From Naegleria gruberi (Eukaryota): a stretch of DNA of 64,000 bases. Position 1 is the first letter of the stretch, and every line of letters starts with the position of its first letter. This document shows, piece by piece, positions 21,838-54,828 of this stretch. The notes beneath the pieces are model-generated. The model was given only the letters and a program-made list of their open reading frames with translations, searched no databases and had not been told where the DNA came from. Location: the NCBI GenBank assembly GCA_000004985.1, contig GG738860.1. One strand, given 5' to 3'. Both the position numbers and the translations under genes were made by a program.

Positions 21838-24774
21838 ATGAAAAAGCACTCATTATTGAATTTCCTGAAGGAATCACAACAAGCTCTCAAGAACAGAAGA
21901 GAACAAGACAGCAAGCCTAGTCACAGGATTCAACCATCCATTGAAGAGTTAGAAAAGTATGCTCACACACCACTTGGTGCATCCTATTTGAAAGCCAGAT
22001 TATTTTTTGATGAGGGAAAGAAGGAATTCTTCTCTGGACATCAAAAGAAGGGCCTTGAATTGATCAGGAAGGGTTTTTGGGAAGATGAAAAGGCATGTCC
22101 ATTTTCTGAAGATGAAGGAGATGCAGTATTGAAATATTGTTGGGATCAAGTGACTCAGAAATCAAGTCCTGATGTCGAGCTTCAAAACACATGTGGCTTG
22201 GTAATTGCATTAATGCATCCTGCCATGGAACCAAAAATCATGACATCTCCATACTTGCTCCAAGAAGGTTCCTTTAGAGCTGTTACATTGGTAGCCTCAT
22301 GGTTGGCATCTGCAGGGGAATGGGAAAATGCACTCCCATTATTCATGCAAGGTTATCAAATTGACCCAACAGATGTGGAGAATTATTATGCTATTGGTGT
22401 GATGTTCAAGTTTCTAAATGATTGGACAAGTGCTCGTGCATGGTTGGAACGTTACATTCAACATTCGGACATTCAGGGTTTCAAGAGACCAGCAGCTCAC
22501 TATGAATTAGCTGCGATTGCACTCGCAGAAAATGATATCACTGAAGCTGCAGAACAAGCCAAACTTGCTAGAATAACTCTCAAAGAGAGAATACCCTACT
22601 TGCCTCCTCTATCTACCTCATCCCAAATGATGGTAGAGAGCATGCTTGGATTAATGGGTGAAACAAACTCCTTCCCAAAGAATGCAAGAAAGGCCGCTGA
22701 AAAAATTGGCAAACAGCATGCATCCAACAATTCAACAAATGCATCATCCTCATCTTCATCAACAACCTCAACAAGGGTTGTTACTGTTCCACCTCCATCA
22801 AAGGAAGCATCAGACTTGAAAGAGAAGGGTAATCAATTGTTTGAAAAGAAAAAGTATAAGGAAGCAATTGAATGTTATTTGAAAGCACTTTCTCTTGGAA
22901 AGAGCAGTATTGATGCAATCTTGCACTCGAACATTTCTGTTTCATATGCGAAAATGGACAATTATGTTGAATCTCTAACGCATGCCGAGAGTTCAATCAT
23001 TGTAGATCCATATCTTTCTAAAGGTTATGCAAGAAAAGCGTTTGCCTTGATGAAATTGAACAGAACTCAAGAGGCCCGTAAATTCACCATTATTAGTAAT
23101 GCATTGGGAATGAAAATTGTAAAGGGTCATGAGCTACACTCACTCTTACCTGATTCCCAAATTGTACTTGTTAAGAATTCATACAATTTGAAAAAGTCCA
23201 TGTTGGAGCAAAATACCACTCAGAGACTATTCATTGTAATTACAGATGAAGACTCCTACAACTTTTCCACTGATATTACTAGACCATGTTCTCTTATTGG
23301 AATTGGAAGAGAGAAACCCAAGTTTACAGGCATGTTTGATACTCTATTTTGGGTTTCCTCTCCTGATTGTCACTTTGATAATCTCAGTATTTCACACTCG
23401 AGAACTCAACTTGTCTATGTTCGTGAAAAGGGTTCATTGACAGCTAGGGATTGTCATTTCTTCTCTTCCAGTAATCCAATGCCACTCGTTGCATGTGGAG
23501 AAGGTGGAAAGTTAACACTTTTGGATTGTGAAATTTATGGAGCTATGGAATCTGGAGGAGTGATGGCTCATGATAATGGATCTATTGTTAAAATGACAAA
23601 TTGTAAGATTCATGATTGCAGTAGGGCAGCTTTAGAAGTGGTGACACATGCAAAAGCTGAAGTTGACAATTGCGAGTTTTATGAATGTGGACAAGGCATA
23701 ATTGGATACAATAGAGGAAAGAGCATTCGTGTGAATAATACAAGAGTTTACCAACATGCAAAGGAAGGAGTTTTGATAGCTATGGGTTGTTCAGCAACAT
23801 TCTCCAAAGTTTCCATCTTTAAGAATAATCATTTTGGATTGAGCGTTGATAATACTGGAACTGCAAAGTTGACCGAATGCGATATTACTGACAACTTGTT
23901 CTATGGCGTGAGTGTGAAGGGAGATTGTCCATTCGAAATGAATAATTCTACCATTAGTGGAAATCAATGTGGAGGTGTTAGAATTGGAATTAATTACACC
24001 TCACCAATCATTATATCTGGATGTAAAATTGTCAATAACACAGGTCCAGGAATCCACAATGAATCTGACAAGTTGAAAATTCCACAAGAAAAGAAGAATT
24101 TCATCAATCAAATGAAACAAATGGGATTGTCAGATAGAGATACGTCCAACAAGGTTTTCAAACAAGTTGCCTCAGCCATAGGAGGAAGCTTAAAATTGAC
24201 CATTACTGATTGCATTCAAGAAGGAAATGATTCACGTGCTGTAGAATCTTCTCAAGCTGATAAGTGCTCATTTTGTCATGTTTCTGCTGAAAAGTGTTTC
24301 AAATGTGCCAAATGTAAACAAGTAATGTATTGTGGCACAGCTTGTCAAAAGAAGGATTGGACCAAACACAAGATATTTTGTGATAGCATGGCTGAAAGCA
24401 ATACAGTTACGATAGACATTTCAAGCAGTTCTGTTGAGGGAAAATTGGTTAGAAATTCAGACCTTTCCTCCAAATATAAGAAACGTCAAGAAGAAAAGAA
24501 GGGAAAATACATGGATGGTGATGATTTTGTTGTGAAAATTCAAACAATCGAATTGGATAGCTCACCAGATCAAACATTGACTCTCTATGATGAAAGTAGG
24601 GAGTTGGTACTCAATTTTAGTAATAGAGATATATTCTATTTGATCATGAAATATGGCACATTGGGAGAAAATCAAATGACATCAAAAAAGATTTTCGTCA
24701 AGGCAAGATTTAATAAGGAAAATAATCAATTGAATGTCTATACTCATAAGGTTTTGCCCATTAGATTGTGGTAG
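21838..24774 (+). CDS. Multidomain protein with N-terminal TPR repeats, a parallel beta-helix (PbH1-type) repeat region and a C-terminal MYND zinc finger.
   Basis: 978-aa ORF. TPR-like helices: ...KEKGNQLFEKKKYKEAIECYLKALSL... Beta-helix repeats: NCKIHDCSRAALEV / NCEFYECGQGI / SGNQCGGVRIG. MYND finger: CSFCHVSAEKCFKCAKCKQVMYCGTACQKKDWTKHKIFC. Confidence 0.8.
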   Translation: MKKHSLLNFLKESQQALKNRREQDSKPSHRIQPSIEELEKYAHTPLGASYLKARLFFDEGKKEFFSGHQKKGLELIRKGFWEDEKACPFSEDEGDAVLKYCWDQVTQKSSPDVELQNTCGLVIALMHPAMEPKIMTSPYLLQEGSFRAVTLVASWLASAGEWENALPLFMQGYQIDPTDVENYYAIGVMFKFLNDWTSARAWLERYIQHSDIQGFKRPAAHYELAAIALAENDITEAAEQAKLARITLKERIPYLPPLSTSSQMMVESMLGLMGETNSFPKNARKAAEKIGKQHASNNSTNASSSSSSTTSTRVVTVPPPSKEASDLKEKGNQLFEKKKYKEAIECYLKALSLGKSSIDAILHSNISVSYAKMDNYVESLTHAESSIIVDPYLSKGYARKAFALMKLNRTQEARKFTIISNALGMKIVKGHELHSLLPDSQIVLVKNSYNLKKSMLEQNTTQRLFIVITDEDSYNFSTDITRPCSLIGIGREKPKFTGMFDTLFWVSSPDCHFDNLSISHSRTQLVYVREKGSLTARDCHFFSSSNPMPLVACGEGGKLTLLDCEIYGAMESGGVMAHDNGSIVKMTNCKIHDCSRAALEVVTHAKAEVDNCEFYECGQGIIGYNRGKSIRVNNTRVYQHAKEGVLIAMGCSATFSKVSIFKNNHFGLSVDNTGTAKLTECDITDNLFYGVSVKGDCPFEMNNSTISGNQCGGVRIGINYTSPIIISGCKIVNNTGPGIHNESDKLKIPQEKKNFINQMKQMGLSDRDTSNKVFKQVASAIGGSLKLTITDCIQEGNDSRAVESSQADKCSFCHVSAEKCFKCAKCKQVMYCGTACQKKDWTKHKIFCDSMAESNTVTIDISSSSVEGKLVRNSDLSSKYKKRQEEKKGKYMDGDDFVVKIQTIELDSSPDQTLTLYDESRELVLNFSNRDIFYLIMKYGTLGENQMTSKKIFVKARFNKENNQLNVYTHKVLPIRLW

Positions 24775-25039
24775 TTTTGAATAATTCAATAATTAGCTAT
24801 ATATTCAAGAAATAGATCTATCAAGATATTTATTAATAGCAATAGATAAATAAAAACCTAACCTTTAGAAAACATTTAACTTTTGACACTTGGCATTAAT
24901 AACATGACAGCTGGCATTTGACACATGCTTACTGAACTCAATAATTCCTGTATCATTTATGATAAAAAAGAACTCTAAAATTGTTGAATAATTACTATTT
25001 CATTTATTCAAGTGTTAAAATGATTGGAAATTGAGAAAT

Positions 25040-26079
25040 TTAGAGTTGAGCCAAACCAGACCAAACATTATCCTCAATACCACATTCATCAGAACCTCTC
25101 AAGATCCAGAAGAAACCTTCTTGACCCCAGTTGGTATTCCATGAGTTGGCAACAATCCAGTATGGAGTATCCTTACCATCAGAGGTAACACCCCAACCAA
25201 CAATTTTGATGGCATGTCCACCTGCCAAAGATCCAGAAACATGTCTATAGACACCTGACTTATACGAAAAGAAATCTTGGTAAACAGAGAAAGCAGCTTG
25301 AACTGGGCCATTTGCTTGGATATCCTTTTGAATATCATCAATAGAACTCAATTGAGCAACAGAGGAAGACTTGGCCTTGTAGAGCTTGATAGCAGAACCA
25401 TCAGTACAAGAAGTTGGGCAAGAACCAACATCACCATTACCAGAAGTGTATGGATCACACTTATCAGATGGAATACCAGTACCAGCAAGGAAAGCCCAAG
25501 CATTGTTCAAATAACCACCATCACAACCATAATCAGTAGAGTCACATTGCAACATGTATTCTGGTGACAAGACAACATCAACTGAACCATTTGAAGCAAT
25601 ACAGAATCTATCAGACAAGACTTCAGAAGCAGAGAAAGCCCAACATGATCCACATTGCTTTAACATTAACAAGAAAATGTCAAATTAATAATTTGATTAT
25701 TGACATTTTGCAAAATAAATGTTAAAACTGCTAATTAAATTAATAAAAAACCTACTTGTTGATCTCTAATTGGATGAACACACTTGCCCCACTTGGTTCT
25801 AGCATCGAATGAGGAAGCAGCCTTCAAATTAGCTGGCATTGTCTTCTTTGGCAAATTGTTGATTGGATGAACCAAGACGGTACCCAACAATTTACGAGCG
25901 TCGCGCAAGGTCATTCCAGCGAATTGCGGATAGGCGGCGGCGGTCCAACCAATGCTAGAGTCAGCATTGATCTTTTGGATCAAGGTGTGATCGTGGACTG
26001 GTCTGTCGAGGGTGGAGAGTTGAGCAAAGGTGCTGACGGCAGCCAATGCTAACAATAAACAAATGATGGCGACTTTCAT
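25040..26079 (-). CDS. Cathepsin B-like cysteine protease, paralog A, preproenzyme with signal peptide. Two exons: join(26079..25756, 25657..25040) on the minus strand.
   Basis: The signal peptide is MKVAIICLLLALAAVSTFA. The active-site Cys motif QCGSCWAFS opens the second exon, and the His (GGHAIKIVGWG) and Asn (NSWNTNWG) regions are present. The intron is 98 nt, GTAGGT...TTAAAG. Predicted 313 aa. Confidence 0.9.
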
Positions 26080-26555
26080 TTTTTTTTTTGATTGATGAAA
26101 GATGGGAGGGTGGTTGGTGCGTCCGTTTTTATTGAAGAGAGTAAAGCAGAAGAGGAAAGAGAATGGCGGATGAGTGTTACAATGGGAGATTTGAACTCCT
26201 TGGGAATAAAAACAGCCGACAATGACGGAATGGATTGTTGTAAACTTGATGTTTATATTCGAAAGTTCAAAGAAGGTATTGTGGAGGAAAATGTCGTATT
26301 TAAAAAGTGGTTGTATATTCAGGAGTCTGATTTGAAAAATTTGCTGCGTGGATTAATAAATGATGATTGACCATTTGCAAAGTCAAATCATTGGTAAGAA
26401 TTGATGCTTTTGATAATTAATAGTGTATTTGATATTATTCAAGATTAAAAACAATTGTTTTAAGAAGCTCTCATGTGAATTCCATCTACTTTCAGGCAAT
26501 AAGGTAAAATGATGTGTATCTTATGATACGATGTTTTTAAAAACTTAATAAGGAA

Positions 26556-26637
26556 GTTGAGGTGGCCGAGTGGTTAAGGCGCCAGCCTGCTAAGTTGGTG
26601 GAGTAATCCGCGTGGGTTCGAATCCCATCCTCAACGT
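26556..26637 (+). tRNA. tRNA-Ser(GCU)
   Basis: Cloverleaf GTTGAGG-TG-GCCGAGTGGTTAAGGC-G-CCAGC-CTGCTAA-GTTGG-long variable arm-GTGGGTTCGAATCCCAT-CCTCAAC-G. It has a class II long variable arm and a Ser-type D-loop. Confidence 0.9.
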
Positions 26638-27791
26638 TTTGCTTGATTAATATTTTTTTATCAAACAAAGATTTTTATTGAGGACAATTGTCCTCCCAAA
26701 AAACAGAGCTGTCCATGACCCTTAATATTTTTTCCGATTGGGAGCTTGACATGATCTTATTCACGGAGTGCAATTGGTGAACATGTTCCTCACCTGGTCC
26801 TTCCTTTGAGTTGCTCCAAAGATGAGTTTAATACAAAATTAATATTTATTACAATGATAAAAATAGTGATGAATAGCTTGTTGGTTCGCTCTCAACAGAT
26901 CCATTTCCTCATTCTGACAATGCTTCTTGTCTTTCCAATAAATTTTTGATTGTGCATTCAATGAATTGAAAGTTCACAATCTGGTTATAACTCAACCTTG
27001 TTGTTTGTTCAATAATAAAGAGGAGTGGATTCTGTTGTATATACTGCATTTTACAACCACAATTATATTAGATTCCAAACTGATTACACTCTCCCATGTC
27101 TCACCGATAGGAGTAATGAAACCAAGTATCCATTCATTTAGATATTAGGAGATTAAGGTGAAACAGTCTCCCAACTACAGTTATGAGAATGCCCAAAGAC
27201 AAAGTTCTTTTAGGAGATGATTGGATTAAATGTTTAAATGTGATCCAGGAGTTCTGAGGCAAAAAGGAAAAGTTTAATCTCCGTTGATGCAACCAGATTT
27301 GAATATTCACTCTTGTTTCATTACATTTTTAAAATCATTCTAATTGGTATGAAATGTTATTGTTTCGATTGAATGTATTGTTATTAATCTTGTTGAAGTG
27401 TTTCTTTTTAAAATTGAATCCAAAATGTGTTAATTCACGACAGAGTGGAATACTGCTATTTTTAAAGTTGTGATAAATGATTGGTTGTCAATGAGGATCA
27501 GCCGACTCCGTGATCAAATTGTATATCAAATAACGACATTAATTTCAAGTCAATTTGTTTACCACATGAAGCATACCCAAAAATACAATATTCAATCTAG
27601 ATAACAATTTTATTGGTGTTGCATTTTCTTTTAAGTGGCTTCCTGCTGTTACTTGGAAGCTGCACTGAACGCTAAAAAGAACCAATTGTAAACTCGTCAA
27701 AAAACTCCTATCAACTTCCGGTCCGTTGCGTCTTCTAGAAGCTTTAAAAACACAGCCAACCGCAATTCCTCAACAAACAGATTAAAAAAAA

Positions 27792-28941
27792 ATGAAATCA
27801 GTCTTTATTGCTGCTTTGTTGTTGGTTCTTGCCACTGCTGCATTTGCCTTCGACTCTGAATTCTTGGCTCAACCAGTCCATGATAACACCCTCATTAACA
27901 AGATTAACACTACCCCAAGAGTTGCTTGGAAGGCTGGTTCCTACAAGCAATTTGAAAACATGACCTTGGGTCAATTCAGAAAGGTATGTTTATATTGTTT
28001 TAACTCGTGGTGCCAACAATATTTTATTATTTTAATTTGTTATTAATTTTTTTCGCTACTTGCTCTCTCACTTCATGATGAACCACCACAACAAACACAA
28101 ACAAAATAATAATAACAATTCCACTCTACTCTAATGATATAGATGCTCGGTGCTGTCCTCATTCAAAAGGGTACTGCTGAAATGATCAAGAAGAAGACTG
28201 CTACTGGTGCTGTTGCTGCTGTCCCAGCTTTCGATTCTAGAACTAAATGGCCACACTGTGTTCACCCAATCAGAAATCAAGAACAATGCGGTTCTTGTTG
28301 GGCTTGTAAGTATTTAATTGTTGTGAAATTTTGTGATATATATTTCATTAATAGTCTCTGCTTCTGAAGTCTTGTCTGACAGATTCTGTATTGCTTCTGG
28401 CGGTAAGGTTGATGTTGTCTTGTCTCCTCAATACATGGTTTCTTGTGACTCTACTGATTATGGTTGTGATGGTGGTTATTTGAACAATGCTTGGGCTTTC
28501 CTTGCTGGTACTGGTATTCCATCTGATAAGTGTGCTCCATATACCTCTCAAAATGGTGATGTTGCTGCTTGTCCAAGCAAGTGTCAAGATGGTTCATCTG
28601 TCAAGCTCTACAAGGCTAAGAACCCACAACAATTGAACGATATCCCATCCATCATGGAAGATATGCAACAAAATGGTCCAGTTCAAGCTGCTTTCTCTGT
28701 TTATAGAGATTTCATGTCCTACAAGTCTGGTGTTTATCATCACGTCTCTGGTTCCCTCTTGGGTGGTCACGCCATCAAGATGGTCGGTTGGGGTGTTGAC
28801 TCTGCTACTAACAAGCCATATTGGATTATTGCTAACTCATGGGGCCCATCTTGGGGTTTGAACGGATTCTTCTGGATCTTGAGAGGTTCTGATGAATGCG
28901 GTATTGAGGACAATGTCTGGTCTGGTCAAGCTCAACTCTAA
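27792..28941 (+). CDS. Cathepsin B-like cysteine protease, paralog B. Three exons: join(27792..27983, 28143..28305, 28355..28941).
   Basis: Signal peptide MKSVFIAALLLVLATAAFA. The 159-nt intron is GTATGT...ATAG. The second exon ends ...CGSCWA and a 49-nt GTAAGT...AATAG intron splits a Phe codon (t|tc). The result is FSASEVLSDRFCIAS, co-linear with paralog A. Predicted 313 aa, the same as paralog A. Confidence 0.9.
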
Positions 28942-29609
28942 ATATCTCAATATTTGAGTTTGTTGACAATAAATGTACCATTATTCACAAAATATTCAAA
29001 TTTTATTATAATCGGAAATGATAATTTAAAAAGTATTAATTATTAATTAAGATTAATAAGAGATCATATCGAATTGAAAATATTTAAGAATGAATTTATT
29101 AAATAACTAAAGCCTTGAAATAGATTTCTCCCATGTGCCATTGGAAAGAGCTCCATCTTGTAGATGCAATTTGAAATGCGATGGAATGCGATGATTGGTT
29201 GGTATTGACAATTCTACAAGAGAGACTTAATGTTTGTGTAGATGAAACAATGAATTTAATTAATGTTTTTAAATATTAACTATCTATCATTTATTAAAAG
29301 TGGAAGTGATATGAGTATGATGATTCTTACAAGTCAGAAAATGATCTGATTGAATCTGAAAGAGAAATTCCCAAATTGAATGTTAGTGAAATAATTGAAA
29401 AATCTTCTCAGCCCTGTTTCATTTGATGGGTAAGAAATTCCAAGCTTGTAGGTTGACGAAGAATTATTGTTTAAATTGGACCTAAGTGAATATTTCATAA
29501 AAGAATTTGATCATTTTTATTTTATTTGAATGTTGGTCAACCAACTTGTTATCAAGGTTAGCGATTTTCATTGTAAAATTCGAAATTGATCTAAATTGTT
29601 AAAAAAAAA

Positions 29610-48506: not shown

Positions 48507-48577
48507 TGCGTCGACCGGGAATTGAACCCGGGTCACGGCGATGGCAACGCCGTATTCTACCACTAAACCATCGACGC
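48507..48577 (-). tRNA. tRNA-Gly(GCC)
   Basis: The reverse complement gives GCGTCGA-TG-GTTTAGTGGTAGAATACGGCG-TTGCCAT-CGCCG-TGAC-CCGGGTTCAATTCCCGG-TCGACGC-A. Anticodon GCC, 71 nt. Confidence 0.9.
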
Positions 48578-54079: not shown

Positions 54080-54150
54080 GGGGCGGTGGTGTAATGGTAA
54101 CATCGCAGCCTCCAAAGCTGTGGCCGGGGGTTCGATTCCCCCTCGCCCCC
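54080..54150 (+). tRNA. tRNA-Trp(CCA)
   Basis: GGGGCGG-TG-GTGTAATGGTAACAT-C-GCAGC-CTCCAAA-GCTGT-var-GGGGGTTCGATTCCCCC-TCGCCCC-C. The anticodon loop reads CT-CCA-AA. Confidence 0.85.
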
Positions 54151-54755: not shown

Positions 54756-54761
54756 GGGGTT

Positions 54762-54792
<31 letters not shown>

Positions 54793-54828
54793 TGCAGAAG
54801 GTCTAGGGTTCGATTCCCTATGACTCCA
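54756..54828 (+). tRNA. tRNA-Ala(UGC)
   Basis: GGGGTTA-TA-GCTCAGTTGGTAGAGC-G-TCTGC-TTTGCAT-GCAGA-AGGTC-TAGGGTTCGATTCCCTA-TGACTCC-A. It carries the G3:U70 alanine identity pair and anticodon TGC. Confidence 0.9.

Follow-up and report, generated by a model that had tools for sequence, protein, structure and literature searches.

Our results support a model in which two neighbouring cathepsin-B-like genes of Naegleria gruberi NEG-M are old paralogues that carry three unrelated introns and exchange sequence by gene conversion. Both genes lie in a 64,000-nt stretch of contig GG738860.1 (GenBank assembly GCA_000004985.1), which we call the window and which consists of AT-rich eukaryotic DNA with 34% GC. 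Gene A (25040-26079, minus strand) and gene B (27792-28941, plus strand) each encode a product of 313 amino acids; they are divergently oriented, with 1712 nt from ATG to ATG, and a tRNA-Ser(GCU) gene lies inside this gap. We consider it likely that the single intron of gene A and the second intron of gene B were gained independently, that the two copies have undergone recurrent gene conversion, and that the tRNA gene is a bystander. The locus is an ordinary, tidy case of intron turnover and concerted evolution in a known protease family, and it leaves current understanding unchallenged.

Two old paralogues in a divergent pair

The gene models were built from the listing of open reading frames (ORFs) and by assembling exons according to GT-AG boundaries and reading frame, with the region 24500-29500 read. 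The following features can be seen directly:

25756-26079, minus strand: gene A exon 1; signal peptide, propeptide and beginning of the mature domain
25658-25755, minus strand: gene A intron; 98 nt, GTAGGT...AAAG, phase 0, IRDQQ / QCGSCWAF, 18% GC
25040-25657, minus strand: gene A exon 2; QCGSCWAF... to ...SGLAQL, stop codon 25040-25042; splice model and tblastn
26556-26636, plus strand: tRNA-Ser(GCU); 81 nt, long variable arm; ARAGORN, and Rfam RF00005 at 62.4 bits
27792-27983, plus strand: gene B exon 1; signal peptide and propeptide as far as GQFRK, colinear with NfCPB-L of Naegleria fowleri
27984-28142, plus strand: gene B intron 1; 159 nt, phase 0, after GQFRK
28143-28305, plus strand: gene B exon 2; last codons ...QCGSCWA plus 1 nt
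28306-28354, plus strand: gene B intron 2; 49 nt, phase 1, within the Phe codon following CGSCWA
28355-28941, plus strand: gene B exon 3; stop codon included

Relative to the A intron site, B intron 2 is offset downstream by 22 nt (7 codons plus 1 nt). An earlier note on this DNA had described two 313-codon genes head to head around tRNA-Ser(GCU), about 1.7 kb apart, with a single phase-0 intron at IRDQQ/QCGSCWAF in one, introns after GQFRK and (in phase 1) after CGSCWA in the other, and discordant positions between them. This description is borne out at the coordinates above. Our splice models recover all three introns and the discordance between the genes, the A junction is also that of the GenBank model EFC46160.1, and the intron-2 junction of gene B is also that of EFC46029.1.

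The equal length of the two products is a coincidence that arises from compensating indels. The earlier note had pointed to their near-identical coding length, which is correct for the length but not for the sequences, since these have diverged to 69% identity in the protein and 70% in the coding DNA. In neighbour-joining trees with 500 bootstraps, gene A groups with fowlerpain-2 of N. fowleri and gene B with NfCPB-L, each at 100% when all columns are used, and trees of the pro region and of residues 173-290 recover the same orthologue pairs at 95-100%. Synonymous divergence (dS) is approximately 0.9 between orthologues, and 1.1-1.3 between paralogues outside the conversion tracts described below. 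This grouping by orthologue, taken with the dS values, indicates that the A/B duplication is older than the split between N. gruberi and N. fowleri. A recent duplication of A and B was rejected, given the 100% orthologue bootstraps and a paralogue dS above 1 outside the tracts. The ratio of nonsynonymous to synonymous divergence (dN/dS) between orthologues is 0.25 for A and 0.17 for B, and thus both genes are under purifying selection.

The genes themselves are already known: the annotation of N. gruberi includes both, and the orthologues in N. fowleri have been studied as secreted, virulence-associated proteases. NfCPB-L (X5D911 / AHW50664.1; FDP41_005002; P0122) is equal in length to the gene B product and 79% identical to it over all 313 residues. 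The two share a phase-0 intron after FRK, but NfCPB-L lacks an intron after CGSCWA, and it ends in GVLL where gene B ends in AQL, a difference that stems from homogenisation of the pair within each species. Fowlerpain-2 (AKC55965.1; FDP41_005005; P0003) is 75% identical to the product of gene A and has the same layout of signal peptide and propeptide, but it lacks the QQ/QC intron and has a phase-1 intron of its own that is absent from A. A second NfCPB-L copy in N. fowleri (P0121; FDP41_005701, on a 36.5-kb contig) differs by 1 residue within the part that it has in common with P0122, and represents a haplotig or else a duplicate of very recent origin.

Origin of the discordant introns

Introns were mapped exactly in 11 heterolobosean genes, with the A and B orthologues compared in two Naegleria species. 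In the list below, Ng, Nf and Nl stand for N. gruberi, N. fowleri and N. lovaniensis, followed by the letter of the paralogue; NfA is fowlerpain-2 and NfB is NfCPB-L.

After FRK, phase 0: NgB, NfB, NfC and NlC; common to all four, and the only intron of NfB
QQ/Q, phase 0: NgA; unique
Phe codon after CGSCWA, phase 1: NgB; unique
Tyr codon of FSYKSG, phase 1, 134 nt: NfA, L001 10716-10849; unique, absent in the other ten genes
Ile codon of HPIR, phase 2: three Willaertia genes (L002 10001-10987, L003 10001-11006, L089 1001-2177); CCAAT/gt..ag/C or T
Arg codon of HPIR, phase 2: Naegleria paralogues C and D (L004 6001-7716, L005 5366-6884, L090 1001-2837); ATTAG/gt..ag/A
Acrasis gene: no introns

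The sites of the A intron and of B intron 2 are empty in nine of the nine other relatives, both N. fowleri orthologues included, and neither NfA nor NfB has an intron anywhere in the active-site region. The A orthologues, NgA and NfA, have not one intron position in common. Around the catalytic Cys, a stretch of 13 codons holds four intron positions: those at Ile in Willaertia, at Arg in Naegleria C/D, at QQ/Q in NgA and at Phe in NgB.

The presence or absence of each intron in each relative is observed directly; that the unique introns are gains, and when these occurred, is what we infer from this pattern. The FRK intron is ancestral at least to B and C, since it is common to NgB, NfB, NfC and NlC, and B intron 1 would have been inherited from before B split from this third paralogue. 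The A intron (QQ/QC, phase 0) and B intron 2 (Phe after CGSCWA, phase 1) would each have been inserted independently after A and B diverged, neither being a displaced copy of the other, and the most parsimonious timing would place both insertions in the N. gruberi lineage after the N. fowleri split. The earlier note had proposed intron sliding or gain after duplication. Comparison with the orthologues polarises the change: the A intron and B intron 2 are found in neither N. fowleri orthologue, so gain, the second half of that proposal, fits best.

A more specific possibility, which we put forward tentatively, is that the A intron, B intron 2 and the fowlerpain-2 intron are all de novo spliceosomal gains that followed the gruberi/fowleri split in an excavate that otherwise loses introns, with two of the three inserted next to the catalytic-Cys codon, no more than 22 nt apart. 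If these gains were indeed so recent, the family would be a tractable natural system for the study of intron gain and insertion-site preference. On a small scale, the locus also illustrates cleanly how intron positions turn over between orthologues and paralogues in a protist with few introns, and such cases help to date intron gains as more Naegleria genomes are compared.

The introns themselves gave few hints of their source. Similarity between the A intron and B intron 2 did not rise above that of shuffled controls. An origin by tandem duplication was rejected, as similarity between introns and flanking exons likewise stayed within the range of shuffled controls. We found no introner-like copies of the three introns in the 64-kb window or the fetched loci, where the matches were AT-rich and of low complexity. 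The intron of gene A contains a perfect 10-bp inverted repeat at 25674-25709, AAAATGTCAA ... TTGACATTTT, with a 16-nt spacer, and this repeat has no further copy in the window or the fetched loci.

Further relatives were sought in environmental and genomic sequences. A metagenome scan with a profile of A, B and P0006 returned 80 loci, nearly all of them uninterrupted ORFs of about 1 kb with 42-57% identity; these uninterrupted loci are probably transcripts. The best of the 80 was a genomic environmental relative (L020, 65% identity), which has no intron across residues 95-292 and a short one near 291. An uninterrupted A-like ORF that ends in SGQAQL (L007, P0006) was left out of the polarisation of introns. 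The gene for a DUF6691 protein, which lies between the N. fowleri copies, was followed as a lead to A and B of N. lovaniensis, but no N. lovaniensis DUF6691 orthologue was present in the database searched, and an environmental contig with a DUF6691 locus (L091) has no cathepsin gene alongside.

Several points weigh against our reading of the locus. The predicted splicing of A and B rests on homology, annotated models and the comparison of strains. The lack of similarity between introns says little, given that B intron 1, which is positionally homologous across species, shows none between them either. A gain followed by a loss would add a single event for each intron, and introns tend to be lost in the Naegleria lineage. 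In Willaertia and in Naegleria C/D, a phase-2 intron that appears to be ancestral lies 10-13 nt upstream of the A site, and formally the A intron could be this HPIR intron relocated. As for gene conversion, the species-type sites outside the two long runs described below may reflect species codon preference.

It is unlikely, although worth serious consideration, that the introns are older than the species split, having been gained on the A and B stems and then lost in N. fowleri by recombination with reverse-transcribed mRNA, with the fowlerpain-2 intron likewise lost from NgA. Naegleria is intron-poor, with about 1.7-2 exons per gene (PMC8296547), and loss has operated within this family, in which paralogue C has 5-6 introns and A/B have 1-2. 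Given the neighbour-joining tree, such a history would require one extra event per intron. The total, however, is three gains and three losses rather than three gains, and 0 outgroup genes have an intron at any of the three positions. Direct evidence points neither way, the comparison covering two Naegleria species for A and B.

Intron sliding, in which the A intron would be B intron 2 moved by 22 nt, or both would be displaced from an ancestral HPIR phase-2 intron, is highly improbable, and this half of the earlier proposal is not supported. The four distinct positions in 13 codons around the catalytic Cys do invite such an explanation, as does the resemblance of the Willaertia and Naegleria C/D positions, 3 nt apart and in the same phase, to a one-codon shift. 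Closely spaced, non-identical positions in homologues are also the subject of the published debate on sliding, in which sliding has statistical support only for shifts of 1 bp (PMC3488318). Here, in contrast, the offsets would be 10, 13, 22 or 32 nt, far beyond the 1-bp range, and would entail phase changes (phase 0 versus phase 1 for the 22-nt offset between A and B) while R-D/N-Q-E/Q-Q-C-G-S-C-W-A remained conserved. The A intron and B intron 2 have no sequence in common, and NfA and NfB are intron-free in this region, which indicates gain or loss instead.

The introns of Willaertia and of Naegleria C/D in the HPIR codons are exactly 3 nt apart, in the same phase and with unambiguous junctions, and this one-codon offset is a better candidate for sliding than the A/B pair. 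Among the genes mapped, N. fowleri paralogue D (P0098, L090 1001-2837) requires seven introns in its spliced mapping, which immediately before the active site includes micro-exons of 7 and 15 nt; either the gene is unusually fragmented there or its annotation is doubtful.

Gene conversion between the inverted copies

Gene conversion between A and B had no place in the earlier note and is a new observation of this study. In a four-way codon alignment of the two genes from both species, 143 sites are informative, of which 87 are of orthology type and 43 of species type, and these form a directly visible mosaic. The species-type sites include one uninterrupted run of 11 (codons 150-175) and another of 12 (codons 296-316). 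Under permutation, a run of at least 11 occurred at a frequency of 6e-5, and two such runs occurred in 0 of 200,000 permutations. The arms of the two tracts are as follows:

25456-25546, minus strand: conversion tract, A arm; 91 nt without a mismatch to the B arm, encoding CDSTDYGCDGGYLNNAWAFLAGTGIPSDKC
28444-28534, plus strand: conversion tract, B arm; 91 nt, mature domain
25030-25129, minus strand: homogenised 3' end, A arm; last ~25 codons, stop codon and ~10-13 nt of 3' untranslated region
28852-28951, plus strand: homogenised 3' end, B arm

At the place of the 91-nt tract, the N. fowleri copies are identical to each other over 84 nt, whereas identity between the species there is 84-93%. 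Within this tract dS between paralogues falls to 0 for the N. gruberi pair and to 0.055 for the N. fowleri pair, as compared with more than 1 elsewhere. The arms of the 3' end are 87% matched, all informative sites within them group by species, and the identity extends 13-18 nt beyond the stop codon in both species. Consistent with this, both N. gruberi genes end in AQL and both N. fowleri genes in GVLL before the stop codon. Because the same tracts are homogenised within each species, conversion has acted in both lineages after their split. The simplest mechanism would be that the inverted copies undergo recurrent gene conversion over two short tracts, the 91-nt segment of the mature domain and the 3' end, and that the same two tracts have been homogenised independently in N. 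fowleri.

Concerted evolution of inverted duplicates by intrachromosomal gene conversion is a general phenomenon, and the locus shares with other cases its mosaic of paralogue-specific and species-specific segments and its tracts of perfect identity in otherwise diverged copies. It differs in that the tracts are very short (~90 nt) and in that the same tract has been homogenised independently in species whose orthologues stand at a dS of ~0.9. Short conversion tracts of this kind distort cathepsin-B phylogenies, which matters for the orthology tables used in studies of Naegleria pathogenicity. In our own trees, the pro region groups B with C (78%) and the mature region groups A with B (82%), conflicting signals that we attribute to gene conversion in the mature region; the grouping of B with C in the pro region agrees with their common FRK intron.

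Within the mature-domain conversion tract, a core of 36 nt, TATGGTTGTGATGGTGGTTATTTGAACAATGCTTGG, does not differ among the four genes of the two species. It lies at 25479-25514 and 28476-28511 of the window and, in N. fowleri, within L001 10001-11073 and 14437-15689. Orthologue dS in codons 149-178 is 0.18-0.20, as compared with ~0.9 elsewhere, and the other paralogues encode the residues of the core with different synonymous codons. The core may reflect codon bias, or else a constraint or hot spot at the nucleotide level.

Gene neighbourhood, exon models and predicted function

The tRNA-Ser(GCU) gene lies in the divergent spacer 476 nt from the ATG of gene A. The earlier note had cast tRNA genes as hotspots of duplication and recombination, a role for which the N. 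fowleri locus provides no support. There, the two genes are convergent and ~3.4 kb apart, with the DUF6691 gene and one other, unrelated gene between them, and no tRNA-Ser is present between the copies. A tRNA-Leu(CAA) gene does lie ~540 nt upstream of NfA (L001 9379-9459). Homology of this gene to the N. gruberi tRNA was rejected, since one is Leu(CAA) and the other Ser(GCU), and their matches fall largely at positions that tRNAs generally share. The order tRNA-Leu(CAA) on the minus strand, cathepsin-B-like gene on the plus strand and RCC1/WD40_RLD gene is found alike in N. fowleri and Willaertia, with the following coordinates:

L001 9379-9459 and 19666-21073: tRNA-Leu(CAA)/RCC1 block
L002 4374-4454 and 11221-12699: tRNA-Leu(CAA)/RCC1 block
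L003 13147-14524: tRNA-Leu(CAA)/RCC1 block

Because this order also occurs in Willaertia, N. fowleri seems to retain the older gene context. In N. gruberi the pair is flanked instead by a TPR/beta-helix/zf-MYND gene and, on the opposite side, by an uncharacterised 1156-residue ORF, and apart from the two cathepsin genes themselves a comparison of the window with the N. fowleri locus revealed no synteny. The DUF6691 orthologue of N. gruberi maps to another scaffold, which, together with the unrelated neighbourhood, indicates that the pair or its surroundings were rearranged in N. gruberi.

That the tRNA gene promoted the duplication or inversion that made the pair is hardly credible: a tRNA gene does sit between the N. 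gruberi copies and another close upstream of the N. fowleri A orthologue, but the latter belongs to the older RCC1 synteny block seen in Willaertia, the N. fowleri paralogues are convergent with two genes between them, in N. gruberi the inverted homology does not extend beyond the coding exons except for ~10 nt past the stop codons, and the duplication is older than the species split. The tRNA-Ser gene would be a bystander within the 1.7-kb divergent spacer. This spacer also contains a 92-residue ORF at 26092-26370 (plus strand), between gene A and the tRNA gene. Three further tRNA genes are found in the window, Gly-GCC (48507-48577), Trp-CCA (54080-54150) and Ala-UGC (54756-54828), for a total of four.

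Several lines of evidence bear on the exon models. Left unspliced, all three intron intervals contain stop codons or break the reading frame. EFC46160.1 (P0011, 289 residues) corresponds to residues 5-293 of our A model, with the same junction, but is incomplete, lacking the first 4 and last 20 residues. EFC46029.1 (P0125, 236 residues) corresponds to residues 78-313 of our B model, with the same intron-2 junction, but starts at an internal Met and lacks B exon 1 and intron 1. Their agreement with our models means that independent annotators also chose these A and B intron-2 junctions, and the full 313-residue models correct both incomplete annotations. The spliced products are colinear, and ungapped at the junctions, with the separately deposited N. 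fowleri sequences AHW50664.1 and AKC55965.1, and B exon 1 and intron 1 are backed by colinearity with NfCPB-L and by the N. fowleri intron at the same position. The exact spliced A and B proteins had no match in a collection of 15 billion proteins.

A metagenome contig (L006; ENA ERZ929261, k127_248607) provides a comparison between strains. It is 98% identical to NEG-M, aligns to 26553-29020 and covers the tRNA-Ser gene, the 1.1-kb spacer and the entire gene B with both of its introns kept. Its indels fall solely in the two B introns or in intergenic DNA, B intron 2 being 46 nt, 3 nt shorter than in NEG-M, and its exons differ by only two synonymous changes. The contig shows that an environmental sample contains a close N. 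gruberi strain. An artefact of the gene models, with wrong exons that conceal shared intron positions or with one copy a pseudogene, is barely conceivable: both GenBank models are shortened and the splicing is predicted, but every intron interval has in-frame stops or frameshifts with unambiguous GT/AG choices, the products are colinear with the two N. fowleri proteins, the Joint Genome Institute (JGI) models share the A and B intron-2 junctions, the indels of the metagenome contig are intron-like, and dN/dS is 0.17-0.25.

Both products match Peptidase_C1 (PF00112; E ~1e-62) at 210.7 bits for A and 209.7 bits for B, against a cut-off of 20.7. Each has a signal peptide, a short propeptide and the catalytic Cys, His and Asn, and the motifs Q..QCGSCWAF, GGHAIK and ANSW align with the Gln/Cys/His/Asn of cathepsin B structures (MEROPS C1A). 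Propeptide_C1 (PF08127) was matched at the expected place, residues 33-69, with 22.2 and 28.1 bits, under the gathering score of 32.7. The top 24 distinct sequences from the Protein Data Bank (PDB) are all cathepsin B or B-like (E 1e-61 to 1e-50), and other branches score worse: dipeptidyl peptidase I at 1e-43, cathepsin H at 1e-34 and cathepsin K/L at 1e-28 or poorer. The best-scoring solved relatives are human and rat procathepsin B (PDB 1pbh, 1mir) and trypanosomatid CPC (4hwy), at E 1e-61 to 1e-55. With these, A and B have in common the catalytic Cys/His/Asn context and a short propeptide that is putatively of the B type. Unlike cathepsin B proper, which has an occluding loop with a His-His pair, the Naegleria proteins lack ~18 residues there, the pair included (two 9-residue query gaps relative to 4hwy, taking in 'shhs'). 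We therefore file A and B as cathepsin-B-like. The earlier note had called them cathepsin-B genes, which is right as to the branch of the papain family, on the PDB ranking, but not as to cathepsin B proper, since the loop is missing. The dipeptidyl-carboxypeptidase activity typical of cathepsin B would not be expected of either product.

By orthology, A and B are predicted to be secreted or lysosomal cathepsin-B-like cysteine proteases. They belong to a large complement, as N. gruberi is reported to have 35 C01 peptidases with an expanded cathepsin B clade (PMC8296547). Their relative NfCPB-L is described as an active cysteine protease that is secreted by trophozoites and was assayed at pH 4.5 on Z-LR-MCA (PMC6988287).

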